In this document: one piece after another, positions 892 to 25,617 of the stretch
Numbering within the stretch: position 1 is the first letter of the stretch
How the letters are laid out: each line of letters opens with the position of its first letter
From: a virus
Taxonomy: Duplodnaviria > Caudoviricetes
IMG/VR virus record: IMGVR_UViG_3300042860_002166
Location: 1-54,673 of that record
Strand: one strand, 5' to 3'
DNA: 54,673 nt
Translations under genes and position numbers: made by a program
Notes under the pieces: model-generated
Databases searched by the model: none
What the model saw: only the letters and a program-made list of their open reading frames with translations
What the model was told of the DNA's origin: nothing

Positions 892-1280
892 GCGAGGGAG
901 AAAATTCGAGGGTCAGGGGGGATGCGTTATTCTCCCGGCGTGGCACAGAGTCCGAGGATATGCGATTGATTCGCCGCTCGATACGCAACGGCTGGCCTGT
1001 GAGCGATGAAATTCGGAGGAAGGTAATGGAGCGCGTCGAGGGGATTCTCGACAACTCTAGCGATAGTCGGGACGTTATCAACGCTTCCAAGGTGGCGATT
1101 CAGGCGGACGGGCTTAATGCCAAGCGCGAGGCGATGGAACTGGACGCGGAGAAGGGGCCGGAGATTCACCTCCATGCGCATACAGGGACGGAGGCGGCTC
1201 GGCAGGTTATCGAGAGCGAGCCGGATTATCTGGAGTACCTGCGGAATAAGGCGCTAGAGAGTGGTTCCTCAGATAGCTAG
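888..1280 (+). CDS. terS: putative terminase small subunit
   Basis: About 130 aa, helical, directly upstream of and overlapping TerL. Positional call. Confidence 0.6.
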   Translation: MSEGENSRVRGDALFSRRGTESEDMRLIRRSIRNGWPVSDEIRRKVMERVEGILDNSSDSRDVINASKVAIQADGLNAKREAMELDAEKGPEIHLHAHTGTEAARQVIESEPDYLEYLRNKALESGSSDS

Positions 1281-2604
1281 TCCGCTATTGTTTGCAACGT
1301 ATGCGAGCGCGGGGAAGTGGAAGCCTCAGCGGCATCTAGCTTACATCGACCGGAAGATCACGGACGCGCTCTCAGGCCGGGGGTCGAAGCGGTTACTCGT
1401 CACGATTCCACCGCGCCATGGCAAATCGGAGTTTATCTCCAAATGGTTCCCGGCGTGGTTCGTGGGGATGTATCCGAATAAGCGAGTCATGCTCGCCAGT
1501 TACGAGGCAGATTTTGCGGCTGGCTGGGGGCGTAAGGCGCGGGCGATTCTTGAGGAATGGGGGCACTTGTTCGGTGTTCAGGTAGACCCGGCTTCTCGCG
1601 CGGCAAATCGCTGGGGGATTCTCGGCGCGAGTGGCGGGATGCAAACTGCGGGAGCTGGTGGCCCACTTACGGGCTCGGGCGCAGATATTCTCGTGGTCGA
1701 TGATGCAATCAAAAATTCTGAGGAAGCGGGATCCGACACGATCCGCTCAAAGCTCTGGGATTGGTGGCTCTCGACAGCCTACAGCCGAATCGAGCCGGGC
1801 GGAACTGCGATTGTCCTGCATACGCGATGGCACGAGGACGACCTGATCGGGCGTCTGATTCAGGAGATGGATAACGGGGGCGAGCCTTGGGAGGTGATTA
1901 ACTTCCCCGCGATAGCCGAGGAGCATGACGTACTAGGCCGGAAACCGGGGGAGTCGCTTTGGCCCGCGCGGTACGACGAAAAAGCTCTTGAGCGGATCAA
2001 GAACACTATCGGCCCCTACTGGTGGTCGAGCCTGTATCAGCAGAGACCGAGCCCGCTAGAAGGTGGGATGTTCAAACGGGAATGGTTCAAGGTGGTCGAG
2101 GAGCCGGGGAAGATTGTTAAGCGCTGCCGGTACTGGGATTTGGCGGCTACTCAAGGGGGTGGGGATTACACGGTAGGCGCTTTAATTGGACTAAATGACG
2201 AGGGGGATTATATACTTCTCGATGTGGTGCGCGGTCAGTGGGAGCCTCACAGGCGTGACGCGATCATTCAGGCTACGGCAGCGAGTGACGGGCGGGAAGT
2301 GATGGTCCGCGCGGAGCAAGAGCCGGGAGCCTCGGGCGTGGCACAAATTGACGCGATGACTCGAAGGCTGACGGGGTATCGGTTCAAGGGTGAGAAGGTG
2401 ACTGGGGACAAGGTAGTCCGGGCCGACGCGGCATCAAGCCAAGCGGGCATCGGGCGGATTAAGTTACTCAAGGGGGAGTGGAATCGGGCGTTCCTTGACG
2501 AGGTGACGATGTTTCCCAATGGGAAGCATGATGACCAAGTGGACGCCTTTAGCGGGGCGTTTAACGCGCTAACCAAACCAGTATCTAGTTTCTGTGTAGC
2601 ATAG
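1261..2604 (+). CDS. terL: terminase large subunit
   Basis: Walker A-like PPRHGKS, Walker B-like ILVVDD, TRWHEDDL, nuclease motifs YWDLA and HDDQVDA. Confidence 0.95.
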   Translation: MVPQIASPLLFATYASAGKWKPQRHLAYIDRKITDALSGRGSKRLLVTIPPRHGKSEFISKWFPAWFVGMYPNKRVMLASYEADFAAGWGRKARAILEEWGHLFGVQVDPASRAANRWGILGASGGMQTAGAGGPLTGSGADILVVDDAIKNSEEAGSDTIRSKLWDWWLSTAYSRIEPGGTAIVLHTRWHEDDLIGRLIQEMDNGGEPWEVINFPAIAEEHDVLGRKPGESLWPARYDEKALERIKNTIGPYWWSSLYQQRPSPLEGGMFKREWFKVVEEPGKIVKRCRYWDLAATQGGGDYTVGALIGLNDEGDYILLDVVRGQWEPHRRDAIIQATAASDGREVMVRAEQEPGASGVAQIDAMTRRLTGYRFKGEKVTGDKVVRADAASSQAGIGRIKLLKGEWNRAFLDEVTMFPNGKHDDQVDAFSGAFNALTKPVSSFCVA

Positions 2605-2616: not shown

Positions 2617-5600
2617 ATGCCAAGGTCTGAAGAAATCGCAAAGGCAATGGCTGAGATGGACCGCTTTAATCAGCAGCCCCGCGCTACTGTTATCGAGGAG
2701 CGATACGAGAAGCGCGTAGCGAGCGTGGGCGGTTCCTATGGCGGGCTGGCTGAGCTAATGAGCCAAGGCAGGCCGGGCAATTGGGCGAGCGACCACAAGG
2801 CAGAGGCAGAGAAATACTCGGGCTGGCATTACGTGGCGATCTCGGCTATCGGCAAGGCGATCCGCTCCTGTGATGTTGAAGCCTACCAAGAGCCGGTAAG
2901 GGAATACTCCAAGGCTTACAACGCGGAGGATGATGATTCGGCTCCGCTTCCGAAGTGGCATCCCCTGATGAAGATTCTGAAGCGGCCTAGCGCGAGTCAA
3001 TCGGGCGCGAGCTTCCGGGAAGAGGTGGCTATCCAGCTTTGCCTCACGGGCAGCGCTTTGATCTGGAACGTGCCAAACCAAATGGGCCGGACGGTCGAGC
3101 GGTACATCATCCCTACGGCGATTGCCGAACCAAGACAACCTGAGAAGGGACTTCCCAAGGGCGGCTGGTACATTAACCCCGAGGTAGCCCGGTGGCAGGT
3201 AGAGAATGGCTGGTTCCTTTACACGGGACTAGCGCAGGCTATCGGCAAGGTAATCGACGCGCGAGACGTTCAGGTTATCCGGTTCATTCACCCGACCTTT
3301 AAGGATGAGGGGCAGAGCCCGGTTAGCGCGGGCGCCTTGTGGACTGACACGAGCGAGAAGATTGACGTATCCCGCCACGCCCACTTGCGGAACGGTTCCG
3401 ATCCCTCAGTGATTATCGGGATTGATGGGGTCGAGGACGAATCGACTCTCCAGCGAATGAGCGCGAAGTTCAATGAGAAATACGCTGGACCGAGCAAGCA
3501 CGGGAAAGCGATGTTTGTGAACGGGCAGAATGTCAAGGTGGAGCCGGTAACGCGGACTCCTGCCGAGATGGCCTATGAGGGGGCGTTCGCTCAGTTCCGG
3601 GACGCGATTATGGCGCTGCATGGGGTAACGCCTATCGCAGCCGGTATCGAAGCGCCTAGCGGTGATGATGGGCTCTACGCGCCGCTGAAGCAGTTTATCG
3701 CGGGAACGGTTCAGCCGATTCTCGACCTTATGGCGGAAGAGGATACCGAGCAGCTCGCTAGTCAGTTTGGCGAGGGGCTGACGGTCTTCTACACCGCTCG
3801 ATCTATCGACGACGCAAAGCTGACCGAGCAGCAAATTAACACCGATATCGCAGCCGGGGCGATTGAGGTAGACGAGATCCGCAAGCTCCGAGGGAGGAAG
3901 CCGTGGGGCGGTGAGAAGGGGAAAGCGGTAGCCGGGCAGGGACCGAAGCAGGAAGGGCCGGGAGGTCTGCCGGGTCTGAATCAGGGGGTTCCGGGATTAG
4001 ACGCGCCAAAGCCTCCAGCAGGCCCACAGGCGAGCGTTCCGGGTCAGCCCGCCCAACCAGCCAAGACACCGGAACAAATCGCAGAGGAGGCCGTAGCGAA
4101 GGCTCTAGCGGCCTTTGAGGATAGGATATCGGTCTTGCTCAAGAGTGGCAGCGATTGCGGCGCGAACGGTCCCGGAGGCGGAGGGTTTCAGGCTGGCAAC
4201 GATTGCGGGGGAAAGCGGGGAGGCAAATGGAGTGAAATGGCCGGTGGTGCAGGGGCAATCGCTGAGGCGGAAAATCAGATTCGCGGCTCCAAGTCAGAGG
4301 TTGCTGTTATTTTTAACCCTGACGGTAAAGAGCTATTTCGGGTGAACGGGATCGAGAATAAGGTAAAATTTACCGATCAAGAATATTCAAAATTTAGCGG
4401 CAAGATTATTACGCACAACCATCCGAGCGATTCAGGCCAACTGGGAACAACTTTTTCCGACCAAGATTTAGCCCTTGCCATAAATGCCAACTTAAAAGAA
4501 TTAAGGTTGGTTGGTTTAGACGGGTCTACTCATTCAATAAAACCATCCGGGGAATCTTGGCCGGATCTTGACGATGTGAATTCAGCCCTAAAAAAAGAGA
4601 GAGCGAAGCTAAAAAAAGAAATCAAGGCTGGCAAGCGTTCTATGTTTGATAACGTAACGCGAATATCTCTGGAAAATGTCTCCGCCAGACTTGGTATTAG
4701 TTATACGCAAGAAAGCAACCGTAAAGCCAAGTCCCTCTCCAAGAGCGCTGACGGATGTGGCGCCAATGCACAGGGCGGAGGTGGATTCCAGCCCGGTAAT
4801 ACTTGTGGGAAGCGGGACGGTAGCGAGGGGGAGTCTCAGGGCGGAGACGCCCGCAAGGTAAACGCTAAGGTACTGGCGTGGGCGAAAGAGAAGTTCGGTG
4901 ACGAGAAGGTAGCAGAGAACTTCGTGCGGTGGTTCGGTGATTCCAAGGTAGTCGATGATGACGGGAACCCGCAGATAGTTTATCACGGAACTACTGGAAA
5001 GTTTGAAAATGTTTTCGACCCAGCAAAGGGGGAGCTAGGAAATCACTTTGGAACTCAGGAAGTAGCAGATGGTTTTGCATCTCGCTTCAATGAATCTGGC
5101 AAGGGAAATCGCGTTTACCCTGCGTTTCTGTCAATAAAAAATCCTTTGAAGATGGTTGATAAGGGCCAATGGGATAACCTTCAAGTTTTGGAGACTTTGG
5201 TCGCCAATGGAAAGATGACACAGAAAGAGGCTGACGACTGGCAATCAGGATTTCAAGAAAGATGGTCGGCTCATAACTGGAAGAGTGGGCCTTACCCGCG
5301 ACAGCAAGAGACAGTGAATTTACTTTCGTCTCATGGGTATGACGGCATAGAATATATCAATCGACGGGAAGGGATTAAACTCCCAAAGGACTTATCTGAG
5401 AATACCAGCAGGCTTAATGGGCTCTCGGATAATGAGTTTCTTGAGCGAGTGCCAAACGCTACCACGAGCTATATCTCTATCTACCCCAATCAAATCAAGT
5501 CCGCTACGGGCAACTCAGGGACGTTCGACCCCGACAATCCGAACATAACCAAGAGCGCTCCCTCAGAGGGCTATCGGCCTCCAGTCTCGGCACAGAGCAA

Positions 5601-7989
5601 CGCGAGAAAAGTCCTTCGATGGAAGCGCGAACACGGGGACGCGGTACAGGGGATGACCGCGACGGGTTGGGCTCGGGCTCGGCAGCTCGCAAGCGGGAAG
5701 AAGGTCAGCCGGGAGACGGTGGGCCGAATGGCGGCATTTGCGCGGCATCGAAAGAACAGCAAGGTAAACCCCAAGTTCCGCGCTGAGCCGTGGCGAGATG
5801 CGGGATACGTGGCGTGGCTGGGCTGGGGTGGTGACTCGGGGATCAACTGGGCAGCGGGAATCGTGGCTGGTGAGGGGAAGAGCGGGAGTGACTGCGGGGC
5901 GAATCAGCCGGGAGGTGGCGGCTTCCGCGCGGGCAACACTTGCGGGAAAGAGGACGGCGGCTCAGGTGATTCGGGTAGCTCGAAGGTTCGCCAGTGGGCA
6001 GAAAAGAAGTTTAAGGACAAGCAGACCGCCGAGAACTTTGCTAAGTGGTTCGGGGACTCTAAGTTTGTTGACGAAAACGGCGAACCGATAGCCGTGTACC
6101 ACGGGACTTCTACGGGGTTCACGGAGTTTCGCAATACAGGGGCAAGGCTTCCGTCAATTGGTTACGGGTTTTACTTTTCACCAGATGCGGACGTTGCATC
6201 GACTTATGCGACAGGAGAAACCCCGCAGGTAATGCAGGTTTACTTGCAAGCGGACAAGGTTTTAGACTGGGATAACCTAAGCAAGTCTGACCGGGAAGCA
6301 GTTGAAAATAGATTGGTCGGTATTGTTCCAGATGACAGGCTAGCTGGTTTTGGTTCGCCGCAGCAGCGGGCATTTTCTAGAGAGCAAGACGATGAAGCCG
6401 AGGCGTTTTATAGGAAAAAAAAGAAAGAGACCGCTCACCTGTACCATGACCGCGCGAAGGCTAGAGTAGATTTTACTGAAGATGGTACGGTGATTTCTTG
6501 GATGGAGCCGGGGCTTGGTAGCGCAACCGATAGCAACCTGAGAACGCTGGCGCAAGAATACGATATGCAGATTGGCGAATCGCTTGGCTATGATGCTGTC
6601 AGAAGCGGTCTTGAGATTGTCGTATTCCGCCCCAATCAAATCAAATCGGCTACCGGCAACTCAGGTGCTTTCTCGCCGGACTCCCGAGATATCACGAAGT
6701 CCTCTGGCTGCGGTGCTAACGCTCAAGGCGGTGGCGGATTCCAGCCGGGTAATACCTGCGCGAGAGAGGACGGGGGCGGAGATGAATCGGGCGACGATTA
6801 CCGAGGAAACCATCGGGCGCCGGGAAGGGATTCAGGCGCCCCCCTCCATGATGTGACCGGGAACGGGGAATACTACCCTGATGATATCTACGGCCCGAAG
6901 GCTGTAAGGCTCTACAACACTGGGAGCGGGAATAAAGAGATGGACGCCAAGTCTATCAAGATTATTCAGTCTCTCCGTGGAAAGCCGGATGCTGAGGTGA
7001 CGATCTACCGAGCGGTTCCGAAAGACACAGATGGAAAAATCAATCCCGGTGACTGGGTAACGATTAACCGTGATTACGCTGTCACTCATGGCGAGGGGCC
7101 GCTTCGTGGCGAATATAGGATAATGGAGCTGAAGGTTCGCGCGTCTGACGTTTTCACTAGCGCGGACAGCATCCACGAGTACGGCTACGACCCTGCCGAG
7201 CGCTCTAAGTCCGGCTCAGACTGCGGCGCCAATGCCGAAGGGGGTGGGGGATTTCAACCGGGAAATAGTTGCGCGAGAGGTGATGGCTCTAAGAGTGGAG
7301 CCGGTGTAATCATTAACGCAAAAGACGCCGCAACTGCCATCGCAAAAGAGGTAATCAAATGGGCGGAGAAAATGAAGCAACAAGATCGGTTGGCTGGGGA
7401 AATGCCGACAGAGGAAGAAGTTAAACAAAATTGGATGAAGCTGTTTCGTAGTCGAAAGCTAAACGAAGGCGACAAAACGGCATTTGCAGAATTGAACCCT
7501 GAGCTAGAATCCTCGATACGCGATGCGGTACAGCAAAACAGCTCAAACCCTGCTTTTCAGGAATTTGTTAAAATTCACGGCGAGTCTCCCGTTATTTACC
7601 GGCGCCAAGAAAAAGGACGAAGCCCAGCAGCGGAATACCGAGGGGTGATTCACGTTTTCGACTCCCCTTTCTGGAAGGGCGAGGGAACGGATGAGCTAAA
7701 ACCGGGCAAGGCTACAGCCGGTGGCATGGGAGGCTATGCGGCTGTCATTCGGCATGAATACGGCCACAAGCTATACGGCGGGCTGACTGTTGACCAGCAA
7801 AGGGAGTGGAGTGGTCTAGTCTCCGCAGTCAAGGATGTAGGAAAAGGTTTAACATCCTACGCAACAAAGAACCCAGAAGAAACATTTTGCGAGTTGTTCG
7901 CGGTTACGACAGACAAGCGATTTAATCCGAGCAGTTTCCCGGATTGGGTGAATCAATTAAGGATTAAACAGAGAGAGTGGTTATTATGA
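2617..7989 (+). CDS. portal protein (about aa 1-440) fused to a roughly 1280-aa multi-module effector extension
   Basis: Follows TerL. HK97-like portal motifs (HPLMKILKRP, LCLTGSALI, GQSPVSA, VDEIRKLRGRKP), then a Pro/Gly linker and repeat-delimited modules. Confidence 0.9.
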   Translation: MPRSEEIAKAMAEMDRFNQQPRATVIEERYEKRVASVGGSYGGLAELMSQGRPGNWASDHKAEAEKYSGWHYVAISAIGKAIRSCDVEAYQEPVREYSKAYNAEDDDSAPLPKWHPLMKILKRPSASQSGASFREEVAIQLCLTGSALIWNVPNQMGRTVERYIIPTAIAEPRQPEKGLPKGGWYINPEVARWQVENGWFLYTGLAQAIGKVIDARDVQVIRFIHPTFKDEGQSPVSAGALWTDTSEKIDVSRHAHLRNGSDPSVIIGIDGVEDESTLQRMSAKFNEKYAGPSKHGKAMFVNGQNVKVEPVTRTPAEMAYEGAFAQFRDAIMALHGVTPIAAGIEAPSGDDGLYAPLKQFIAGTVQPILDLMAEEDTEQLASQFGEGLTVFYTARSIDDAKLTEQQINTDIAAGAIEVDEIRKLRGRKPWGGEKGKAVAGQGPKQEGPGGLPGLNQGVPGLDAPKPPAGPQASVPGQPAQPAKTPEQIAEEAVAKALAAFEDRISVLLKSGSDCGANGPGGGGFQAGNDCGGKRGGKWSEMAGGAGAIAEAENQIRGSKSEVAVIFNPDGKELFRVNGIENKVKFTDQEYSKFSGKIITHNHPSDSGQLGTTFSDQDLALAINANLKELRLVGLDGSTHSIKPSGESWPDLDDVNSALKKERAKLKKEIKAGKRSMFDNVTRISLENVSARLGISYTQESNRKAKSLSKSADGCGANAQGGGGFQPGNTCGKRDGSEGESQGGDARKVNAKVLAWAKEKFGDEKVAENFVRWFGDSKVVDDDGNPQIVYHGTTGKFENVFDPAKGELGNHFGTQEVADGFASRFNESGKGNRVYPAFLSIKNPLKMVDKGQWDNLQVLETLVANGKMTQKEADDWQSGFQERWSAHNWKSGPYPRQQETVNLLSSHGYDGIEYINRREGIKLPKDLSENTSRLNGLSDNEFLERVPNATTSYISIYPNQIKSATGNSGTFDPDNPNITKSAPSEGYRPPVSAQSNARKVLRWKREHGDAVQGMTATGWARARQLASGKKVSRETVGRMAAFARHRKNSKVNPKFRAEPWRDAGYVAWLGWGGDSGINWAAGIVAGEGKSGSDCGANQPGGGGFRAGNTCGKEDGGSGDSGSSKVRQWAEKKFKDKQTAENFAKWFGDSKFVDENGEPIAVYHGTSTGFTEFRNTGARLPSIGYGFYFSPDADVASTYATGETPQVMQVYLQADKVLDWDNLSKSDREAVENRLVGIVPDDRLAGFGSPQQRAFSREQDDEAEAFYRKKKKETAHLYHDRAKARVDFTEDGTVISWMEPGLGSATDSNLRTLAQEYDMQIGESLGYDAVRSGLEIVVFRPNQIKSATGNSGAFSPDSRDITKSSGCGANAQGGGGFQPGNTCAREDGGGDESGDDYRGNHRAPGRDSGAPLHDVTGNGEYYPDDIYGPKAVRLYNTGSGNKEMDAKSIKIIQSLRGKPDAEVTIYRAVPKDTDGKINPGDWVTINRDYAVTHGEGPLRGEYRIMELKVRASDVFTSADSIHEYGYDPAERSKSGSDCGANAEGGGGFQPGNSCARGDGSKSGAGVIINAKDAATAIAKEVIKWAEKMKQQDRLAGEMPTEEEVKQNWMKLFRSRKLNEGDKTAFAELNPELESSIRDAVQQNSSNPAFQEFVKIHGESPVIYRRQEKGRSPAAEYRGVIHVFDSPFWKGEGTDELKPGKATAGGMGGYAAVIRHEYGHKLYGGLTVDQQREWSGLVSAVKDVGKGLTSYATKNPEETFCELFAVTTDKRFNPSSFPDWVNQLRIKQREWLL
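4141..4209 (+). repeat. module-delimiting peptide repeat 1 (KSGSDCGANGPGGGGFQAGNDCG)
   Basis: Translated in frame. One of six copies. Confidence 0.95.
4210..4740 (+). other. portal-extension module A: JAB/MPN-like metallo-domain
   Basis: E...THNHPS-x-TFSDQD fits the JAMM pattern E-HxH-S-xx-D. AT-rich relative to flanks. Confidence 0.65.
4741..4809 (+). repeat. peptide repeat 2 (KSADGCGANAQGGGGFQPGNTCG)
   Basis: Translated in frame. Confidence 0.95.
4810..5556 (+). other. module B: ART-PolyVal-like ADP-ribosyltransferase domain (variant catalytic residues)
   Basis: F-x-x-WFGDSKVVD-x-G-x-P-x-VYHGT ... LSIKNP ... GYDGI ... PNQIKSATGNSGTFD, the signature of ARTs in phage polyvalent proteins. 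Confidence 0.75.
5557..5877 (+). other. module C: small conserved helical phage domain of unknown function
   Basis: GWARARQLA...TVGRMAAFARH...GYVAWLGWGGDSG. Resembles a domain I recall fused to phage head proteins. Bounded by KS sites. Confidence 0.5.
5878..5946 (+). repeat. peptide repeat 3 (KSGSDCGANQPGGGGFRAGNTCG)
   Basis: Translated in frame. Confidence 0.95.
5947..6696 (+). other. module D: second ART-PolyVal-like ADP-ribosyltransferase domain
   Basis: WFGDSKFVD...VYHGT...GFYFS...ASTYA...GYDAV...EIVVFRPNQIKSATGNSG. H-Y-E-type residues appear present. Confidence 0.8.
6697..6762 (+). repeat. peptide repeat 4 (KSSGCGANAQGGGGFQPGNTCA)
   Basis: Translated in frame. Confidence 0.95.
6763..7206 (+). 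other. module E: polyvalent-protein-associated domain, possibly ART-like fold
   Basis: VTIYRAVP...INPGDWVT...YAxxHG...HEYGY. The YR...T...E spacing is reminiscent of ARTs (inference). Confidence 0.4.
7207..7275 (+). repeat. peptide repeat 5 (KSGSDCGANAEGGGGFQPGNSCA)
   Basis: Translated in frame. Confidence 0.95.
7276..7989 (+). other. module F: zincin metallopeptidase (HExxH...E)
   Basis: VIRHEYGH followed by SYATKNPEETFCELF, a lethal-factor/MPTase-like pattern. Confidence 0.75.
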
Positions 7990-9530
7990 CGCAACCATTT
8001 CCCGATCAAGTCGATGAGTTCGAGCCGTTGTATCGGACGCCTTGGCCCACCAAAGAGGAATTGCTTTTGGTATCTGCCGAGCGATCCAAATCCGGCTCAG
8101 GCTGTGGCGCGAACGCTGAGGGTGGCGGAGGCTTTCAGCCCGGCAACACTTGCGGGCGCGAAGATGGCGCGGAGAGTGGGGGAGAGGGTTCAGCCTCCAA
8201 GCAAAAGCTAACAAACAAATGGAACCAGCTCTCTGCCGAGTTAATGAACGCTTCCGGCATGTCGTTTGATGAGGTTCTTGATAAGGTAATGTCCGTCAAA
8301 GGTGGAACCAAGGCAGAGATCGACTGGATGCAGTCAGAGGTTGACAAGCTGAGATCTGGTTCGTTCACTGAGGCCAGAAAAAAGGTTCGCGCCGAACTCG
8401 AAAAGATTCGGGAGGATGTTGTTTCGGTGTGGAGCGTAGAGGAAGAAAAGATCAAGGCAGCAAACAAAGCCGCTACAGAGGCCGATAATAAATGGAAGGA
8501 TTTATCTAAGCAGCACGGGCTGGCGTTCTTGGAGCTGCACTTGGAGAAAGAGAAGTTAAGCAAAAGCGTCAGTCCAGAAGGCGAGCGAAAAGTAGCCGAG
8601 TTGACTGAGCAGGTCGATAAACTTGATGGCCTGCAAAAAGAGTCTTCGCGGAATTTAATAAAATCACTGGACGAAAAAAAGGCTGTTGAAGATGCGGCTC
8701 GGCTAGCCGTTGCCAAGGTGCTTGCCAATGACGCCGAATCAATCTCGAAAACTGCTTATGATGTTCCATTGCAAGAGCTGAGGGATCGACACCTCGACAA
8801 GGTTAAGTCCGGGATGTTTACCGACAGATCGACGGAACGTGCGCAAGAGTTGGCTGAGCAAGGTTCGCAGAAAAAGCCTCGCGTCGAGTCTCAGGAGTTT
8901 CTTGCCTTAGCGGCGAATATAGCCATCCATGAAAACGCTTTAAGGGCTACTGTGGAATATGGTGATATCGACAGGGCTCACGCAGTCCCAGAGATTGACA
9001 AGTTCAAGTATTTTGCTTTGACTGACTCAGGAGCCTCAAAGGAAGAAGCAAGGGCCGAGTCTATTGGGACCGGCAAGGTTGCTCTGTCATACGGTGAAGA
9101 TGTGCCAACTTACCTCCATGAGTACGCCCACCAGATAGAGTTTAACTCCAGAGAAGCTAGGGAGACTGCGCGTGACTTTTTGATGGAAAGGGTTTCTGGG
9201 GATAGGTTTGAAACGCTATCGACTGTTTTCGATAACGCTGGCTATGGTCCTGAAGAGCGCGGCGCGGATGATAATTTCGCAGCCGCATTTAAGGCGGTCG
9301 GATACAATAAAACAGACGGCAGCTATAGCGACCCAGCGCGGAGGGCTTACTACGCTGGCAAGTATTACAAGGACGGATTTACAGAGACGCTTTCGATGGG
9401 GATTGAGCTGTTCCACAAGAACCCTGCGGAGTTTGCCCACGCTGACCCTGAGTGGTTTGATTTGGTAACTGGAGTTCTGACTGGGCGACTGCTCCCGAAA
9501 ACTCAAGAGAGGATTAAGGCGCGAAAATGA
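7986..9530 (+). CDS. repeat-tagged coiled-coil plus zincin metallopeptidase protein (module G)
   Basis: ATGA overlap with the portal stop. Carries repeat 6, a long coiled coil, YLHEYAHQIE and TETLSMGIE. Confidence 0.8.
   Translation: MTQPFPDQVDEFEPLYRTPWPTKEELLLVSAERSKSGSGCGANAEGGGGFQPGNTCGREDGAESGGEGSASKQKLTNKWNQLSAELMNASGMSFDEVLDKVMSVKGGTKAEIDWMQSEVDKLRSGSFTEARKKVRAELEKIREDVVSVWSVEEEKIKAANKAATEADNKWKDLSKQHGLAFLELHLEKEKLSKSVSPEGERKVAELTEQVDKLDGLQKESSRNLIKSLDEKKAVEDAARLAVAKVLANDAESISKTAYDVPLQELRDRHLDKVKSGMFTDRSTERAQELAEQGSQKKPRVESQEFLALAANIAIHENALRATVEYGDIDRAHAVPEIDKFKYFALTDSGASKEEARAESIGTGKVALSYGEDVPTYLHEYAHQIEFNSREARETARDFLMERVSGDRFETLSTVFDNAGYGPEERGADDNFAAAFKAVGYNKTDGSYSDPARRAYYAGKYYKDGFTETLSMGIELFHKNPAEFAHADPEWFDLVTGVLTGRLLPKTQERIKARK
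8088..8156 (+). repeat. peptide repeat 6 (KSGSGCGANAEGGGGFQPGNTCG)
   Basis: Translated in frame, in a separate gene. Confidence 0.95.
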
Positions 9531-9775
9531 AAGCCGTAGTTAAATACAAAAAAATGAGGTTCACGGTCACAACTAAAGGCGGTCTCAAGGTTACAGGCCC
9601 AAAGGGGTTTGATACCGCGCCTCTGGTTGAATACCTCCAGACGGCTTACCAGATGGACTACAGCCCGGCGCTAGGATTCCCGGTTGGGTTCTACGCGGAA
9701 CGGTTAGCCGCGCTCCTAGATGGCGAGGTGGCTAGTGTTGAATTAGGAGAGGAACCGGAAGGGATGATATACTAG
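9527..9775 (+). CDS. small hypothetical protein (candidate partner or immunity protein of module G)
   Basis: 82 aa, ATGA-coupled to the upstream peptidase gene. Confidence 0.6.
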   Translation: MKAVVKYKKMRFTVTTKGGLKVTGPKGFDTAPLVEYLQTAYQMDYSPALGFPVGFYAERLAALLDGEVASVELGEEPEGMIY

Positions 9776-9779: not shown

Positions 9780-10613
9780 ATGCCAGACGACCCCAACAGA
9801 CTAGACAACGAGGCCAAACTCCAGACGGTGATCATGGCGCTCCTGCTCGACCTTGAGCAAGCGGCGCTCTCCCGGCTCGGGGATAGGCCGATGATGGACG
9901 ACCTGCCGCAGTGGTTCTACGCGCAAGCCAAGCAGATGATTAAGGTCGAGGTGGCGCCTATCCTCAAGGATGTAGCCTTTGACGCGGCAATCCGAACGGG
10001 CGATGAGCTGGGCTGGGACTTGAACGCTATCGGGATCGCCTCAGAGATTAACCGGAGGATTGATAACCAGTCTACGCTCTTGGCTGAGTCGATTCTCACG
10101 AAGCTCCAAAAGCAAGTAGGCGACCGGGTGCGGCAGGTCCGCGCGGGTGAGCTGGCGCTGGGCGCTTATCTGTACATGCTCTGGGGCGAGAAGTTCCCGG
10201 AGTCGGTGAGCATTACCGAGACCACGCGGGCTATCTCAGCGGGTGAGAACGCGACCACGAGAGAGCTGGAGCGAGAGATTGCTCAGCGGCGCCGCGAGGT
10301 GCTAGGTGGTGACGGAGTGGCTGAGGGATATGAGCCGGATGATTCCGAGACGGTAGGCGGGACCAAGCCGGGTGAATCAGCAGCGCCGAAGCCTAGCGAG
10401 ACGGGTACGCCAAGTAGACCACGTAGGCCGATGGCGGATCTCAAGCTGCTCAAGGTGTGGCATACTCAGCGGGATGAAAAGGTCTGCAAGATCTGCGGGC
10501 CACTCGAAGGAAAGAACCAACGATTCTGGGAGGATAAATTCCCTAACGGCCCTCCGGGACACAATAATTGCCGCTGTTTTCTAACCTACCAAGTAATAGG
10601 GACCGGGCTTTGA
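9780..10613 (+). CDS. head morphogenesis protein, MuF / SPP1 gp7 family
   Basis: ITETTRA, KVWHT..DEKVCKICGPL, PPGHNNCRC. Confidence 0.88.
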   Translation: MPDDPNRLDNEAKLQTVIMALLLDLEQAALSRLGDRPMMDDLPQWFYAQAKQMIKVEVAPILKDVAFDAAIRTGDELGWDLNAIGIASEINRRIDNQSTLLAESILTKLQKQVGDRVRQVRAGELALGAYLYMLWGEKFPESVSITETTRAISAGENATTRELEREIAQRRREVLGGDGVAEGYEPDDSETVGGTKPGESAAPKPSETGTPSRPRRPMADLKLLKVWHTQRDEKVCKICGPLEGKNQRFWEDKFPNGPPGHNNCRCFLTYQVIGTGL

Positions 10614-10789
10614 GCTGGACTCCTGAGCGGCGCAAGGCTGCGAGCGAACGCGCGAAAACCCACCGACCTTGGGAGCAGCGTAAACCTCCGGCCAAATGTG
10701 GAAAGTGTGGCGGTAGGTCTATCGTGCGCCGTAGTGGTCTGGTGGGTTATCGCTACTGCGAGGACTGCGGCAAGGGAGAGAAGACTTAG
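10610..10789 (+). CDS. small zinc-ribbon protein
   Basis: TTG start overlaps the MuF stop. CGKC...CEDC. Confidence 0.55.
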   Translation: MSWTPERRKAASERAKTHRPWEQRKPPAKCGKCGGRSIVRRSGLVGYRYCEDCGKGEKT

Positions 10790-10974
10790 CTCCGGGCCAG
10801 TTCCGCAACTTCGATTCGCAGGCTGTAGGCGAGTTCCTCTATCGTGGACTCGCGGGCCTGAATCATCTTTATCTCGCCAGCCGGTATCTCGAAGATTAGC
10901 TCGGCGTAGTACCAGTGGTAGCATCTCCAGAGGCGGAGTTCGCCGTATTCGAGTAGGTCTTGTAGTTCGTTCAT
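10786..10974 (-). CDS. hypothetical protein
   Basis: ATGA-coupled to 10971..11216, with GGAG-like SD. Confidence 0.6.
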   Translation of the reverse strand: MNELQDLLEYGELRLWRCYHWYYAELIFEIPAGEIKMIQARESTIEELAYSLRIEVAELARS

Positions 10975-11216
10975 GTGGAGCCTTGTTCCTTTTTTCTTGC
11001 AAGTCGTCGCCGGTGTTTGTTGTCCATTTGCTCTACTAGCCTGCCGTGAGCCTGAAAGGTCGCGACCATCTGGCTAGTAGTGGAGCCGGATATCCGCGAG
11101 GCTCTAACATCGTCGCTCCACCCTGCCCTAATCTGTTCGAGCGCCTCCATTGCTTCAGGGGAAAGCTCTAAGCCGATTCCTTTTGGTGGGTGTTGCTGTA
11201 GCGTGAGAAATTCCAT
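10971..11216 (-). CDS. hypothetical protein
   Basis: GAGG SD and ATG start. Confidence 0.6.
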   Translation of the reverse strand: MEFLTLQQHPPKGIGLELSPEAMEALEQIRAGWSDDVRASRISGSTTSQMVATFQAHGRLVEQMDNKHRRRLARKKEQGST

Positions 11217-11375
11217 TTGATTCGCCTCAGTTGGTTGGTGAAAAGAAAAAGCCCTTTAACGCGGGGCCAGCGGCTAGTTCGGCGTCCTTTTGTTTATGAG
11301 GAGTCAGGACGGTTTGCCAGCTTGCGAGGGTTACGCGCCACCACTCGCTAGGCGCTATGAAGTCTCGATATCCTA

Positions 11376-11705
11376 TTAGAAGGGGTAAGCGGTATCTTCC
11401 TGCTTGCGAGCGCGAGTCTCTCCCGCATCGACGGCCTCCAGCATGGCGCGGGCCTGCTCGACCTGAGCCATCATCTGGGCCAGTTGCATGACCTCGTTGA
11501 GAAGCTCGGTGGGCCTGCGGTTGTGCGGTAGGCCGTAGTTCTCGATCTCAGCGATGGAGCGCTCGGCTAGGTCGCGGATACCTTCGAGGTTAAACTTGAG
11601 CCGGAATCCGAGTAGGCTCTTGAGGGCCTCCTCAGCTTCCTTCTCAATCTGCTCAGCGGTCTTGATCTCGCGGGTCCGTTCGTAGAGTCCTTTGGGGTAG
11701 TTCAT
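11376..11705 (-). CDS. hypothetical helical protein (MNYPKG...)
   Basis: GGAG SD. TAATG coupling with the upstream ORF. Confidence 0.65.
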   Translation of the reverse strand: MNYPKGLYERTREIKTAEQIEKEAEEALKSLLGFRLKFNLEGIRDLAERSIAEIENYGLPHNRRPTELLNEVMQLAQMMAQVEQARAMLEAVDAGETRARKQEDTAYPF

Positions 11706-11965
11706 TAGTGTTTCTCCGGGGTTGTGGTAATTGACTCGTAGACTTGCCGACCGTGATAGGGGTTGTGATTTACTAGCTTCCACTCCCAGCCATCGGGCGG
11801 CATTTGGCCGGGTAGTGTTGCGCAGTAGTAACTTGAATCAAAAGCAAAAACGTGAATCCTGACGTAGCGGGTAGGTTGGTAGCGGTGTTCTCTAATGCTT
11901 TCGACATCCGACCAGACTGACCACGCAATAGCTTCGGCGGCTGACTTTGTGCGTTTGGCTGTCAT
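11705..11965 (-). CDS. hypothetical protein (MTAKRTK...)
   Basis: AGGA SD and tight packing. Confidence 0.6.
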   Translation of the reverse strand: MTAKRTKSAAEAIAWSVWSDVESIREHRYQPTRYVRIHVFAFDSSYYCATLPGQMPPDGWEWKLVNHNPYHGRQVYESITTTPEKH

Positions 11966-11976
11966 TTGCGGGCATC

Positions 11977-12273
11977 CTAAGCGTAGGCGGTGAAGCTCTG
12001 AGGTGTGCCGTCCCAAAGGCGGGCGCTCTCGTAGCTTTCGATAGTGACCCACTCGCCACGTAGCGAGCGGCGGAATTGCTTGCCGGTGGCAGTCTCACCG
12101 GGGATAACCTTACCCCGCATGTTGCCATCTTCCGTGATGATGGTGGAGAGCTTCTCAAGGGTCACGGTCTTGGCGGTCTTGCGAACCACGCGGTAGAAAC
12201 AGACGTTGGTTTGTTCGTAGCCCCACTGGCTGGTAAAGATGGTTCCGACTTCGATGGTGGCTTGGTCGTTCAT
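11977..12273 (-). CDS. conserved mobile-element hypothetical protein (WGY-E/D-QTN-x-x-FY family)
   Basis: IFTSQWGYEQTNVCFYRVV motif seen in phage/plasmid accessory genes. GGAG SD. Confidence 0.7.
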   Translation of the reverse strand: MNDQATIEVGTIFTSQWGYEQTNVCFYRVVRKTAKTVTLEKLSTIITEDGNMRGKVIPGETATGKQFRRSLRGEWVTIESYESARLWDGTPQSFTAYA

Positions 12274-12286
12274 TTGGGTTCTCCGG

Positions 12287-12478
12287 TTAGTTGCTGAGAT
12301 ATGACTGCTTAAAATTGTTTCTGATTACCGACTCTGCCCGCTCGACCATTTGGAGCAGTTCGGAAACTGACCACTCAACAGCGGTGACAGTTTTGTAGTG
12401 GGCTACGCATGGCTCGCATTTTGCAAGGCTTCGCAATCGCCTTACGAGTTTCTTGCGGTTTTCCATTGTGTCATCCAT
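12287..12478 (-). CDS. hypothetical protein
   Basis: Fits between neighbours, downstream of a repeated promoter-like element. Confidence 0.5.
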   Translation of the reverse strand: MDDTMENRKKLVRRLRSLAKCEPCVAHYKTVTAVEWSVSELLQMVERAESVIRNNFKQSYLSN

Positions 12479-12514
12479 CTGCCAGTATCCGGTTAGTGGT
12501 GAGTTGGTTACAGA

Positions 12515-12565
12515 GGGTTATTCGCTAGTCTCGATATCCTATTGGCAGGATTCAGAAAAATTCTC
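12515..12565 (-). promoter_or_regulatory. repeated promoter-like element (T-tract...AATAGG...GCGAATA on the minus strand)
   Basis: Similar to elements at 12855-12902, 13254-13300 and 35189-35235. Each lies upstream of a small minus-strand gene. Confidence 0.55.
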
Positions 12566-12814
12566 GATTAGTTTCTTGAGCTGCCTGATTTGCTTGCGGG
12601 CTGACTGGCGCTCCTCTGCTTCGTCAGAGTCGAGCATCTCGCTCTGGCAGGTTCCGCCCTCTAGGAACAGGCTGAGAACGTGGCGGGCCTCGCTGACAAG
12701 CTGGGAATCCTCCATAGCCTCTAGTTTGATTCCGTCATCATGGCAGACGTTTTCAAGGGTGTTCGATAGCTCGGTGATGCGGTTGGCGGCGAGGATTAGT
12801 TTCGGGGTAGCCAT
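12539..12814 (-). CDS. hypothetical protein (MATPKL...)
   Basis: AGGAG SD. Confidence 0.65.
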   Translation of the reverse strand: MATPKLILAANRITELSNTLENVCHDDGIKLEAMEDSQLVSEARHVLSLFLEGGTCQSEMLDSDEAEERQSARKQIRQLKKLIENFSESCQ

Positions 12815-12854
12815 TTCATTTTCTCCTAGTTGGTAAACTGAACAGGTAACAAGA

Positions 12855-12902
12855 GAGTATTCGCTAAGCACGTTAGCCTATTGGAAAGATTCCAAAAAAT
12901 TC
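12855..12902 (-). promoter_or_regulatory. repeated promoter-like element
   Basis: gagtattcgcta...cctattgg..gatt..aaaaattc aligns with 12515-12565. Confidence 0.55.
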
Positions 12903-12908
12903 TTGGTT

Positions 12909-12960
12909 GCCTCGTCAGTGACCGGGAACCGCCCGGCCAGACCCCCGCAGGGGTTTCGGC
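12909..12960 (-). ncRNA. hammerhead ribozyme, type II
   Basis: Minus strand reads GCC GAAA CCCC-ugcg-GGGG UC UGGCCGGG-cgguu-CCCGGUCA CUGACGA GGC. The core is complete, with three stems and a GUC cleavage triplet. The 3' AACC can pair with loop GGUU. Confidence 0.92.
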
Positions 12961-13206
12961 TTACTCCGCGATATTTAAGACTCGCTCTTGTCCGAGGTCG
13001 AGCTTGAATCGCAGGGATACCCGGTATTCATTCTCGTAGGTCGGGACTCCCGGCTTGTATGGCTGAAGTACAGACTTCGGAAAGTAGCACTCGTAACCGT
13101 TATCAATGTTCTGGACTTTTACGGCCCGCTGGGTTTCGCCTACAACCTTCACGATAGCAGCATCAAAAGCCCGCTCGTGAATAACCAGTGTTTGCCCGAT
13201 AGTCAT
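12961..13206 (-). CDS. hypothetical protein (MTIGQTL...)
   Basis: GGAG SD. The stop codon abuts the ribozyme. Confidence 0.65.
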   Translation of the reverse strand: MTIGQTLVIHERAFDAAIVKVVGETQRAVKVQNIDNGYECYFPKSVLQPYKPGVPTYENEYRVSLRFKLDLGQERVLNIAE

Positions 13207-13253
13207 TTTTGATTCTCCGTTAGTGGTCTCAACTCGTCCCATTGTATGAGTGA

Positions 13254-13286
13254 GTATTCGCGTCCTGCAATAGGATATCGGAAGTA
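13254..13286. repeat. dispersed repeat GTATTCGC-N5-GCAATAGGATATCGGAAGTA, copy 1
   Basis: Identical, apart from N5, to 35189-35221. Confidence 0.9.
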
Positions 13287-13403: not shown

Positions 13404-14633
13404 ATGAGAAAACGTCTCGGAACGATCTACAAATTCGCCGGTTCCCCTGCATTAGCTGGGGCCGGTCGCATTACGAACGTAGACACCGCGCGAAGGACAG
13501 CCTCGGCGGTTATCTCGACTCCTGCGCCGGATCGGGTGCGCGACTCGCTCAATCCGCTGGGCTGCTCACTAGATGAGTACCAGACTAACCCGGTGGTATT
13601 TTGGGAACACGGCAAGGTATTAACCAAGCCAATCGGCACGAGCCAAGACCCCAACACCGGCAGGCTCTCGGTTCAAAAGACACAATCCAACGTAGTCGCT
13701 ACTTGCTGGTTTACGGATAAGTTTCTCGAAGCTGAGCAGATTTTCGAGCTGGTAGCCGAGGGGACGGTTCGGGCTACATCGGTTCGCTTTACGCCGGTGA
13801 CTCAGCCGGTGGTCAGAAAGTCAGATACCTACTTTGAGGAATGGATGCTCCTCGAATGGAGCTGGGTTGGTATCGGGTGCAATCCCGAGGCCATCGCGGC
13901 AACGGTTGCCAAGGGGCAGCTCGCGGGACGGCAGATTGTGCCGAGTATCGCGAAGAGTTTGGAACTGTATTTACCTAATCGCAAGATTCAAGTACCGGGG
14001 TTCAAGGCAATGGAATACGAAGAGATGGAAGACGAAATGCCTCAAGATGAAGGCATGACCACAGAGGACGCCCCGAAAGAGGAAGAGGACCGAGCCGAAG
14101 AGATGCCAGCCAAGGGCTACGGCGCTCAGCTTATGGAAGCGGCCTATAAGGCTGTCTCTGAGCTATACGGCAATATGGAACAAGGGATGGGGCCGCTGGA
14201 GAATCCAACGGTCAAAGAGGCCATGACGGCGATCATGGAGAACCTCGGACAGATCAAGCTGGCGATGGAAGGCGCTTACTCCGAGAACTACAAGGCGAAG
14301 CTCGGTGAGGTGTGTGAGTCGTGCGGGCAGGAACAGGACGAGGAGGCGATGCTCAAATCGTTTCTCTCTCTTGGCGCTACCCAGCGGTTTGAGTTGATGG
14401 GCGTGGCGGATCGACTGAAGAGCGTTTCTTCGAGTCGCAATCTGACAAAGTTCCAGCGCGACAATCTGCGGGAATCCGCTCGGACTCTGGATCGGCTGTT
14501 CTCTAAGGCGAAAGAACAGCGGACACAGAAGCCGAAGGAGACCCCGGAAGTTGCAAAGCAGCTCTCTGAAATGTTTGGAGAGATGAAGGACTTAATCGGA
14601 ACGCTCAAAAGCGCGGTTCCGGCTCGTAAGTGA
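13404..14633 (+). CDS. prohead maturation protease (HK97/S78 family) with acidic scaffold-like C-terminal extension
   Basis: DRVRD, NPVVFWEHG..PIG, TSVRF, LLEWSWVGIGCNPEA. Directly upstream of the capsid gene. Confidence 0.9.
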   Translation: MRKRLGTIYKFAGSPALAGAGRITNVDTARRTASAVISTPAPDRVRDSLNPLGCSLDEYQTNPVVFWEHGKVLTKPIGTSQDPNTGRLSVQKTQSNVVATCWFTDKFLEAEQIFELVAEGTVRATSVRFTPVTQPVVRKSDTYFEEWMLLEWSWVGIGCNPEAIAATVAKGQLAGRQIVPSIAKSLELYLPNRKIQVPGFKAMEYEEMEDEMPQDEGMTTEDAPKEEEDRAEEMPAKGYGAQLMEAAYKAVSELYGNMEQGMGPLENPTVKEAMTAIMENLGQIKLAMEGAYSENYKAKLGEVCESCGQEQDEEAMLKSFLSLGATQRFELMGVADRLKSVSSSRNLTKFQRDNLRESARTLDRLFSKAKEQRTQKPKETPEVAKQLSEMFGEMKDLIGTLKSAVPARK

Positions 14634-14654: not shown

Positions 14655-15932
14655 ATGAGTGATATCGATCTGAAAAACAGCATCGACGAAATCCGCAAGG
14701 AGTTTGGTTCCTTGCGTGAAGTGTTCAAGGGTTTGAACCAGCCCGCGCCACGGTATACCGAGGACGCTGAAGGTGGTTCAGTTTCGTACTTCGAGGAATC
14801 GAATGAGTACGTTGCTTTCGACTTGGAGAAGGCTCGCGCTGAGCGGGAAGCCGGTCAGAAGTGCAAGAGCTTGAAACTGCCCAAGGGCTACAAGCACGGA
14901 GTCTTCAAGGGCTTCGGTGACTTCCTCAAGAGCGGTTATCAATCCGGTGGTACTGGCGAATGGCGCTCGAAGGTCAACAACGTCTACGAGAAGGCTATCC
15001 AAGGGATGGGCGTTCAGGTAGGCGAAGACGGCGGGTTCCTCGTGATGCCAGAATTTGCTTCCGGGATTCTGGAGCGAGTCTACAGCAATAACCTGTTTGC
15101 TCAGACGGACAATTACACCGTATCGGGCAACACCATGACCTTTAACCGCAATGCGGAAACCAGCCGGGCCAATGGCTCGCGGCATGGTGGCTTGCGTGGT
15201 TACTGGGGTGCGGAAGGTGGCTCGCTGACCTCCAGCTCTCCGAAGATTCGGCAAACCGTTCTGAACCTGAAGAAACTTCACGTTCTGGTTTACCTGACAC
15301 AAGAGCTGATCGACGACGCCGGTACTGCAATCGAGCAGTACGTTACCCGCAAGGCCGCTGAAGAGTTCAACTTCATGCTAGGTGATGCGGTGTTTAACGG
15401 TACTGGTGTTGGTCAGCCTTTGGGTATCCTGAGCGCTCCTGCTCTGGTCTCGGTTGCCAAGGAAGCCGGGCAAGCGGCGGATACGATTGTTGCCGCGAAT
15501 ATCGACAAGATGTTTGCTCGCAAGATCGCCGGTGGAAACTACTCTTGGTATCACAATCAAGACTGCGGCGCTCAACTCGACAACCTCGCGCAGGATGTTG
15601 GTACGGGCGGCATGGCTCTGTATCGTCCGGCTAACGGAATCGCTGGCGCTGCTCCTCAGACTCTCAAGGGTCTGGGCCGCGCAGAGACCGAGTTCAACTC
15701 GACTCTGGGTGATCAGGGTGACTTGATTCTTGCCGACCTCTCGAAGGTGCTGAGCATCTCCAAGGGTGGCATTTCTCAACAGGCCTCGATGCACGTTGCC
15801 TTCTTGACTGACCAAATGGCTATCAAGTTTACGATGCGCTGCGATGCTCGCCCTTGGGAAGATACACCGCTGACTCCGTACAAGGGCAGCGCGACCCAAT
15901 CGGCATTTGTTACTCTCGACGCTCGCGCCTAA
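14655..15932 (+). CDS. major capsid protein, HK97 fold
   Basis: N-terminal delta-like region, then KAIQGM...GGFLVMPE, ELIDD, GTGVGQPLGIL, FVTL. Confidence 0.95.
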   Translation: MSDIDLKNSIDEIRKEFGSLREVFKGLNQPAPRYTEDAEGGSVSYFEESNEYVAFDLEKARAEREAGQKCKSLKLPKGYKHGVFKGFGDFLKSGYQSGGTGEWRSKVNNVYEKAIQGMGVQVGEDGGFLVMPEFASGILERVYSNNLFAQTDNYTVSGNTMTFNRNAETSRANGSRHGGLRGYWGAEGGSLTSSSPKIRQTVLNLKKLHVLVYLTQELIDDAGTAIEQYVTRKAAEEFNFMLGDAVFNGTGVGQPLGILSAPALVSVAKEAGQAADTIVAANIDKMFARKIAGGNYSWYHNQDCGAQLDNLAQDVGTGGMALYRPANGIAGAAPQTLKGLGRAETEFNSTLGDQGDLILADLSKVLSISKGGISQQASMHVAFLTDQMAIKFTMRCDARPWEDTPLTPYKGSATQSAFVTLDARA

Positions 15933-25614: not shown

Positions 25615-25617
25615 GCG

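Follow-up and report, generated by a model that had tools for sequence, protein, structure and literature searches.

A conserved Cys-Gly tag at the unit boundaries of a predicted portal-borne polyvalent effector array in an uncultured tailed phage

In this study, we have analyzed the head-gene module of an uncultured tailed phage (Duplodnaviria; Caudoviricetes; IMG/VR record IMGVR_UViG_3300042860_002166), in which the portal protein continues into a long string of effector-type modules, most of them headed by a short Cys-Gly peptide that we call the tag. The window analyzed is the whole virus record, 54,673 bases. The fusion gene lies in a recognizable order of head genes, with the large terminase subunit (TerL) upstream and a MuF-like minor head protein, a protease-scaffold protein and the major capsid protein downstream (Table 1). 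A preliminary description of this locus had read the gene as a portal with a string of several effectors behind it, set in the head module, and the Pfam, PHROG and NCBIfam context agrees with that. A protein identical to the fusion was already on record in the protein collection that we searched.

Table 1. Features of the head-gene region, with positions in the window (aa, amino acids; ORF, open reading frame).
Feature	Position	Strand	Basis or remark
Large terminase subunit	1261..2604	+	phrog_38 E 5.1e-110; directly 5' of portal gene
Portal-polyvalent fusion gene, 1790 aa	2617..7989	+	Uninterrupted ORF; Pfam Phage_portal and two ART-PolyVal
Portal domain, HK97 family, aa 1 to ~440	2617..3936	+	PF04860; PDB 6tba
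Pro/Gly/Ala-rich linker whose C-terminal end is a predicted helix leading into tag 1	3937..4140	+	Translation; AF2
Tag 1, K-S-G-S-D and Cys loop	4141..4206	+	
Module A, JAB/RadC-like by motif only	4207..4740	+	H-N-H-P-S-D...S-D-Q-D in translation
Tag 2	4741..4806	+	
Module B, ART-PolyVal ADP-ribosyltransferase	4807..5550	+	PF18760 E 6.5e-19
Module C, uncharacterised domain, tagless junction to B	5551..5877	+	phrog_2859 E 2.3e-13
Tag 3	5878..5943	+	
Module D, second ART-PolyVal	5944..6696	+	PF18760 E 1.2e-24
Tag 4	6697..6759	+	
Module E, widespread ~140-aa phage domain	6760..7206	+	phrog_2579 E 4.7e-33
Tag 5	7207..7272	+	
Module F, predicted HExxH zincin (lethal-factor/PPEP-like fold)	7273..7986	+	HEYGH in translation
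Gene after portal fusion	7986..9530	+	36-aa leader, tag 6 (8088-8153), coiled-coil region, HExxH zincin module G
Small ORF, 82 aa	9527..9775	+	No family match; membership in system not established
MuF/SPP1 gp7-like minor head protein	9780..10613	+	PF04233, TIGR01641, PHROG head morphogenesis matches
Prohead protease (aa 1 to ~190) and scaffold-like C-terminal half	13404..14633	+	PHROG 80, PHROG 617, NF045541
HK97-family major capsid protein	14655..15932	+	PF05065 E 2e-35; TIGR01554 157.6 bits

The N-terminal domain of the fusion is matched over aa 104-426 by Pfam PF04860 (Phage_portal) with 101.1 bits against a cut-off of 39.1, and the HK97-family portal of PDB 6tba is found with an E of 6.7e-5; TIGR01537 reaches 44.4 bits (curated cut-off 112). 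The extension of about 1350 aa that follows amounts to five modules' worth of sequence headed by copies of K-S-x(2-3)-CGANxxGGGGFxxGNxC. The strict motif CGAN..GGGGF..GN.C starts at nt 4156, 4756, 5893, 6709 and 7222 in the fusion ORF and at nt 8103 in the next ORF, and it occurs nowhere else in the window in any of the six frames; its degenerate DNA form has six matches in the window against none in 100 dinucleotide shuffles. Lys-Ser precedes every copy (at 4141, 4741, 5878, 6697, 7207 and 8088), exactly as the preliminary description had it, with five copies in the fusion and a sixth heading the next gene. The same description had noticed that the one junction devoid of a tag, between modules B and C, still reads T-K-S, and the translation there is indeed I-T-K-S-A (~5545-5553). 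Upstream of tag 1, AF2 predicts the 19 preceding residues to be helical.

With at least two distinct effector-type domains in one polypeptide, and with terminase, portal and other head genes around it, the fusion resembles phage polyvalent proteins in architecture and gene context. The module identities that had been proposed earlier hold for the two ART-PolyVal domains and for the HExxH motifs of module F and of the next gene (HEYAH in module G), and they do not hold in the same way for the “JAB” module: module A has no Pfam match at E<=1, its leads to JAB-clan families in the Atlas are weak (scores <=0.79), and the top matches there (0.84) are to Phage_min_cap2. Read by eye, the H-x-H...S-x-x-D of module A resembles a JAB/RadC metal-site signature. 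Module E has 363 homologs, most of them without a recorded Pfam family; its AF2 model is confident, with a predicted local distance difference test score (pLDDT) above 90, and finds BFVD matches down to E 1e-15, all to uncharacterised phage proteins, with weak leads to ART-like folds in Atlas and VIA. We folded module E, tag 5 and module F together with AF2 using 62 sequences (mean pLDDT 85). In VIA, the module F part aligned with a Z of 7.9 to two Pro-Pro endopeptidases, PPEP-2 (146 residues aligned, root-mean-square deviation (rmsd) 3.9) and PPEP-3 (160 aligned, rmsd 4.2), and with a Z of 10.5 to lethal factor, the latter however at an rmsd of 12.3; nearly all of the rows were zincins, and no Foldseek match was found in pdb at E<=0.001. 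Module F is, on this model, predicted to fold as a zincin.

Module C has no Pfam match, and domains of its type (... R-M-x-x-F-x-A-R-H ... W-x-x-W-G-G-D ...) recur in other settings, at the C-terminus of a portal elsewhere, at the N-terminus of an S78 protease (L077:10158-11549) and in a gene that lies between portal and scaffold-like genes (L072:9037-10077). The gene that follows the fusion begins with an ATG that overlaps the portal-gene stop as ATGA (7986-7989), and its homologs begin at the same M-T-Q-P-F. Its zincin module G is separate and adjacent here, whereas in six close relatives it is the last module and is fused in frame, so that the ATGA arrangement looks like a recent split with translational coupling. 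A purine-rich stretch lies ~10 nt upstream of the overlap.

Several observations indicate that what is conserved in the tag is the peptide and not the DNA. The six copies share 83% amino-acid identity and 71% nucleotide identity, and where they hold the same residue, 139 of the 212 codon pairs use different codons, which rules out that the tags arose as a DNA repeat. In a 35-column profile built from 42 copies, 12 columns are invariant and both Cys are retained in all 42; they are invariant in every tag subclass as well. The subclasses, among 210 unique tags, are CGAN..GGGGF (149), CGAGSPGGxGF (27) and a shorter CGTGxGGF (26). Folded alone, the tag is returned by AF2 as coil without a fold (pLDDT 55-59, low confidence), and in the model of tag 5 with its linker between modules E and F, residues 149-180 are disordered (pLDDT 33-41) while the flanking domains reach about 90. 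A Gly/Ser/Asp-rich spacer follows every tag. These models describe the tag as a disordered short linear motif. Three chemical precedents were considered and dropped: a CGEQ-like thioester (two subclasses have Gly in place of the Asn), an intein-like cleavage between Asn and Cys (the residue at -1 is often G, S or A) and JAB cleavage after Gly-Gly (a JAB-like module is rare, in 3 of 358 segments between tags). A predicted complex of the protease-scaffold protein, the capsid protein and the 35-aa tag scored 0.00, which counts neither for nor against binding.

The tag reaches far beyond this phage. A scan for its strict DNA pattern gave 22 stretches on 17 IMG/VR contigs, with as many as 7 on a contig. 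The bacterial and archaeal genome collection gave only two, one in a prophage of a Pirellulaceae metagenome-assembled genome and the other in a 2.8-kb contig closely related to this phage. Among 1.84 billion cluster representatives, the tag profile matched 270 proteins at E<=0.001 and 58 at E<=1e-10. The tag is specific and heads variable modules in the head-module genes of many other phages, a point that the preliminary description had proposed to check. We examined 152 proteins (P0001, P0002 and 150 listed profile matches), in which there are up to 7 tags per protein and lengths of up to 4085 aa; single-tag proteins are the commonest (78/152). The short form, NCGTGxGGFxxGNxC, is commoner than the long one, with more than 120 IMG/VR stretches as a lower bound, and the CGAGSPGG pattern was met in only one. 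The Pirellulaceae prophage (L023, on a 400-kb contig) has a portal 42% identical to that of this phage and a separate tag-bearing gene of 701 aa, and continues in the same order with MuF, protease-scaffold and capsid protein genes (the last 49% identical); it hints at planctomycete hosts for this phage group.

The position of the tag within these proteins was informative. It had been described as a feature of the portal, and this proved too narrow, since it also follows MuF and S78 domains, stands before a protease and opens free-standing proteins. Among the 37 best profile matches, ART-PolyVal was found in 22, a portal in 4 and MuF in 3, with ADPrib_exo_Tox, GNAT, InPase and the topoisomerase I core among the other domains. 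The 76 ORFs with the short form include 23 portals from three Pfam families (Phage_portal_2, 12; Phage_portal, 9; Portal_Mu, 2), 8 prohead proteases (S78 or S78_2), 3 MuF and 9 ART-PolyVal. When we went through 120 listed homologs that share an ART domain with the fusion, tags were present in 13 of 14 that bear a portal, in all four that bear MuF and in none of 35 that bear PF18857. In three of four S78-bearing proteins inspected, some 45 residues separate the protease domain from the tag, behind which comes a tail of ~75 aa; in the remaining one the tag precedes the protease, 29 residues from the N-terminus. Two further proteins hold it between an N-terminal region that we read by eye as a protease, which Pfam did not confirm, and a long scaffold-like part. 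In 114 of the 152 proteins the first tag is reached within 130 residues, and some proteins begin directly with it (M-S-G-S-D-C... and M-P-S-N-C..., for example). The tag is always N-terminal to a domain, with post-tag segments that have a median length of 268 aa and a 5th percentile of 100 aa. Based on the distribution over portal, MuF and S78 anchors, the tag marks the joint between a component of the head interior and what is carried behind it, and, judged from the same translated sequences, it also marks the joints between carried units.

The ~75-aa tail is a domain of its own (K-H-D-V-K-L-P ... L-T-I-D-Q ... A-L-K-Q-L-G-Y ... D-L-V-Y), and three contigs have it behind the short-form tag of an S78 protease and two behind that of a portal (L058:3989-5023, L086:4082-5212, L077:10158-11549, L083:3-1499 and L037:1-1047); by sequence, it is a small cargo swapped between anchors. 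In five other short-form contigs (L149-L153), the tag-bearing ORF (242-638 aa) lies directly downstream of an ORF of 645-995 aa that overlaps a Pfam S78 match and is probably a protease-capsid fusion; here A-G-Q/G-x-x-A-D follows the tag instead of the Gly-rich spacer. Two non-exhaustive searches of INPHARED found no tag in a cultured phage. A tblastn of the 35-aa tag gave no match to its phage records, where the low-complexity filter may have masked the tag, and a tblastn of a protein with the protease-tag-tail arrangement matched 605 records, none covering >=80% of the query; the 25 listed matches stop at residues 188-215, upstream of the tag. A jackhmmer search for further protease-tag proteins returned only its two queries.

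The cargo is variable, and it is shuffled at tags. Clustering the 358 inter-tag segments with BLAST yields 111 clusters, of which 81 are singletons. Ten database relatives of the fusion have portals that are 76-97% identical and match only 30-55% of the query length, and their maps show other module orders and contents; over all relatives compared, module sets differ on portals of 76-99% identity. In a comparison with the close relative L024, the alignment holds 91% DNA identity from the linker into tag 1 and then stops, and homology resumes (95.5%) exactly at the first base of the second tag of L024, which matches tag 1 of this phage, and runs on through module A (98.9% identical) and tag 2. 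Both breakpoints are in tags, and one of the two phages thus has a tag-bounded 1.2-kb module that the other lacks. The arrangement is that of the junction motifs of polymorphic toxins, with a motif directly before variable modules and breakpoints that map to it. Another relative (L017, IMG/VR, 1940 nt), with a 91%-identical portal, has an array interrupted by several frame changes, including one within tag 1; an assembly or indel error seems likelier here than biology, and we excluded L017 as evidence.

We also explored the Lys-Ser dipeptide and the protease that might use it. In the 12 aa upstream of 270 tags, K-S is present in 46% of cases; in 8346 control windows taken from these proteins, the figure is 5.5%. 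The reverse dipeptide S-K shows no such excess. Of 210 tags, 169 have a Lys or Arg 2-5 aa ahead of the first Cys, and the residue after the nearest Lys is Ser in 88 of 167. The spacing between K-S and tag is variable, as expected for a site in a flexible segment. The protein encoded at 13404 matches PHROG 80 (“head maturation protease”, 5.7e-5) and, over positions 1-306, the NF045541 model for prohead protease/major capsid protein fusions (E 1.1e-7, below its cut-off). Seven aligned homologs of this protease-scaffold protein (27-42% identity) share 45 invariant positions, among which are H69 and S126, presumably the catalytic residues, and two Lys-Ser sites, in I-x-K-S-L at the end of the protease domain (K184-S185) and in K-S-F-L in the scaffold (K318-S319). 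It is at such invariant K-S positions that self-cleavage sites would be expected. A K-S in the capsid protein (aa 92-93) was considered as a matching maturation site and dropped, as it is not conserved. Co-occurrence of the tag with HK97-type proteases had been put forward as a check, and Pfam S78 is present in seven of ten long contigs with the short form, a count that comes from related sequences and not from independent ones.

Around the array, the remaining genes are less distinctive. The small ORF at 9527..9775 gave no match in Pfam, PHROG or NCBIfam and no tblastn match in related loci; in L024, DNA homologous to the MuF gene begins within ~100 bp after the array. The MuF-like protein itself is tentatively assigned by a C-terminal PF04233 match just below the cut-off (27.2 bits; cut-off 29.6) and by TIGR01641 (E 1.2e-4; 22.4 bits, cut-off 39.65), and its position after the portal gene fits MuF. 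Between this gene and the protease, 2.8 kb (10614-13403) hold only small ORFs on both strands, with negative AT skew and no Pfam match for the ORFs at 10.6-13.3 kb, and may be a cassette inserted inside the head module. Several large ORFs of the tail region (22592-28760) have no PHROG match. Further along, the record encodes a DNA methyltransferase (37700-38866, minus strand; phrog_67 4e-72), a helicase (40503-42071, minus strand; phrog_16 4e-56) and an exonuclease (52300-53361, plus strand; phrog_284 3e-35).

From the architecture of the fusion, the peptide-level conservation of the tag, its distribution, its place between anchor and cargo and the shuffling at tags, we infer how the array might be incorporated, cut (and at which bond) and ejected. 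The system is predicted to be a virion-delivered set of polyvalent effectors that is carried by the portal protein itself. The C-terminus of a portal faces the capsid interior, and the 1350-aa extension would therefore be built into the prohead with the portal ring, nominally in 12 copies. The string would be a chain of independently folded cargo units, each beginning with a short run of amphipathic or hydrophobic character, followed by K-S, a Gly/Phe/Asn loop of 17 aa bounded by Cys, a spacer rich in Gly/Ser/Asp and finally an enzyme domain, and the tag would mark the start of each unit that the head machinery handles separately. We tentatively propose, at slightly below an even chance in our judgment, that the tag is a recognition element for the head-maturation machinery, with cleavage just upstream of it. 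The prohead protease, or the protease-scaffold core, would engage the tag and cut the variable segment that precedes it, in this clade most likely after the Lys of h-h-K-S; cleavage by the prohead protease between Lys and Ser is plausible. This cut would free the portal channel and leave in the capsid separate effectors, each starting with a tag, that would exit with the DNA at infection. Since all units have this tag in common, recombination at tags can add, remove or rearrange modules or set them apart as separate genes. We prefer recognition coupled to cleavage because it fits a tag at every joint, including the two apparent protease-scaffold joints, together with the Lys-Ser data.

A number of our observations weigh against this proposal. 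The preliminary description had made Lys-Ser a general part of the tag, and this is not the case in the wider set: K-S is missing upstream of 54% of the tags in the long-form-dominated set and of 80% of the short-form tags (it lies within 12 aa upstream in only 20% of 79), 23 of 210 tags have no Lys or Arg within 8 aa, and one subclass has E-S-D-E in place of K-S. Read from these sequences, cleavage at Lys-Ser is not general across tags. The protein at 13404 had been named an S78 protease; it has no Pfam Peptidase_S78 (PF04586) match at E<=1 and is only weakly assignable to S78 through the PHROG and NCBIfam matches given above, and three of the ten long short-form contigs gave no Pfam S78 match. 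The K-S of the capsid protein is common to just three of eight aligned relatives. In proteins that start with the tag, and in the one where it lies ahead of the protease, a pure cleavage signal would have little to do. Finally, the phage is known from an uncultured virus record, by its genes alone.

These last proteins lead to a different reading, in which the tag would be a cargo-loading or co-assembly address that binds a surface of the prohead interior (scaffold, capsid lumen or portal crown) or other tags, with cleavage secondary. By analogy with known loading peptides, we regard this as possible, with a real if minor share of the probability. It accounts for the N-terminal tags of free-standing proteins and for tag-first proteins, for tags ahead of a protease or between apparent protease and scaffold-like parts, for the same small cargo on protease or portal, and for the multivalency of up to 7 tags. 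A disordered motif with a flexible spacer is what is expected of a docking peptide, and four of the five other long-form contigs encode a capsid protein 59-60% identical to that of this phage, a count that again comes from related sequences. An address would however be redundant in arrays that are already fused to portal, MuF or protease, yet the tags there are under long-term purifying selection; the occurrence of the short form with three portal families means that any receptor would have to be very conserved or generic, and no partner was identified. The address explains N-terminal tags and the tagged protease better than cleavage does, and it could well be what the tag primarily does. Were the protease-scaffold core the receptor, both readings could hold together. 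A more sweeping version, which we find doubtful though slightly less so than the address taken as the whole explanation, is that the Cys-Gly loop and its upstream helix (~25-30 aa) form a portable, near-universal head cargo label of HK97-type phages, sufficient for uptake, protease release and delivery; such a label would be common to phages with three unrelated portal families and exchanged with the modules by recombination.

The other readings have less to recommend them. The tag could be an exit or handling signal, a flexible N-terminal leader that engages the portal or tail channel or starts unfolding for ejection; this is the sole function that cleaved fused modules and free-standing ones would need equally, and it suits a tag that always precedes a domain and a disordered spacer, but ejection is not expected of scaffold-like regions or of a protease, and these are headed by tags as well; we judge this reading unlikely. 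Processing might instead be the work of an effector-borne peptidase (zincin F or G, or the JAB-like module) or of self-cleavage at the tag. The G-type zincin closes the fused array in six close relatives, and metallopeptidase domains have been proposed to process polyvalent proteins autoproteolytically (Iyer, 2017; PMC5512222), while the Asp or Asn found before the first Cys in 59% of tags is compatible with side-chain-assisted cleavage. The G-type zincin was nevertheless found in none of the five other tag-bearing viral contigs, two of them complete, and we reject it as a universal tag peptidase for the family; the scarcity of JAB-like modules argues in the same direction, the G, S or A at -1 in ~25% of tags rules out a universal Asn/Asp mechanism, and a disordered 17-aa loop has no fold for catalysis, which together make this reading very unlikely. 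We consider it improbable to a like degree, or a little more so, that the tag is a metal- or disulfide-bridged connector, with a Zn held jointly by two tags or with disulfides formed between tags once the virion is released, that locks the cargo in an inner body dissolving in the reducing host cytoplasm: the two Cys are invariant, and a loop that is unstructured alone may await a ligand or partner, whereas single-tag proteins are the commonest and no further conserved ligand residues are present. That the tag has no biochemical role, as a generic flexible linker or a mere DNA-level recombination joint, is barely credible. Module indels do end at tags and the region is disordered, but the 12 invariant columns and the differing codons speak against it, and in a generic linker Cys, Phe and Asn would not stay invariant over three families of portals.

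How a phage chooses, loads, processes and ejects the proteins carried in its head is known for only a few model phages. One peptide that stands at anchor-cargo and cargo-cargo joints in hundreds of uncultured phage proteins is a concrete and mutable target for such work, and it also serves as a search key for new virion-delivered effectors, as the many singleton module clusters illustrate. A payload caught up in an arms race would be expected to show just this turnover of cargo on an almost unchanged portal. Should the tag be sufficient for loading, it would offer a handle for packaging engineered proteins into phage capsids, and if it were indeed a cargo label, it would be a phage counterpart of the loading peptides of encapsulins.

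The array can be compared with several known systems. In T4, internal proteins carry an N-terminal capsid-targeting sequence that is removed by the gp21 prohead protease, and the ejection proteins of giant phages have propeptides. The likeness lies in a short signal on proteins that are packed in the head, processed by a protease and ejected, all of which is predicted for the system described here; the key distinction is that the T4 signal lies upstream of the cut and is discarded, whereas the tag is downstream of the putative cut, would stay on the product and repeats within the polypeptide. Encapsulin cargo-loading peptides, the best-known of which are C-terminal, bind the shell protein. They share with the tag, as a functional analogy, a short Gly-rich disordered peptide with a flexible spacer on diverse enzymes and an HK97-fold shell, and they differ from it in that the tag is N-terminal or internal and has two invariant Cys. 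In polymorphic toxins, pre-toxin junction motifs such as VENN in CdiA precede hypervariable modules, and recombination breakpoints map there. The tag resembles them as a conserved short motif immediately before variable modules, with breakpoints at the motif; those motifs, in contrast, belong to secreted bacterial toxins with another logic of secretion, and the tag to phage head proteins in which it repeats up to 7 times.

Closest to our data are the polyvalent proteins, in which effectors fused to portal, MuF or capsid-processing peptidase have been described, and which are predicted to be packaged in the head, injected and proteolytically processed (Iyer, 2017, PMC5512222; Iyer, 2022, PMC9503650). 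The claim of the preliminary description that a payload built on the portal rather than on MuF had not been described is therefore too strong. As in this phage, those proteins bring several conflict-type domains together in one polypeptide, ART-PolyVal being the commonest, from a gene among terminase and portal genes. The fusions described there place single effectors on their anchors; here, a whole multi-module array sits on the portal and every unit is headed by a tag, which all 35 of the listed giant polyvalent proteins with PF18857 lack. The passages that we found in the two papers do not mention the tag motif, our literature searches turned up no mention of it either, and the supplements of 2017, whose domain alignments could hold it, lay outside that scope. 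The MuF polymorphic toxins of temperate phages are also similar, in that a conserved head-protein N-terminus is followed by a variable C-terminal effector and encoded beside the portal gene (Jamet, 2017; PMC5576092, as seen in part). They carry one toxin per protein on MuF, and the text seen reports no junction motif, whereas here the portal is the carrier and several chained modules share a tag. In conclusion, the portal polyprotein is not new in kind, and what appears to be new is that a conserved tag, spread this widely, bounds the units of a cargo array that is shuffled.

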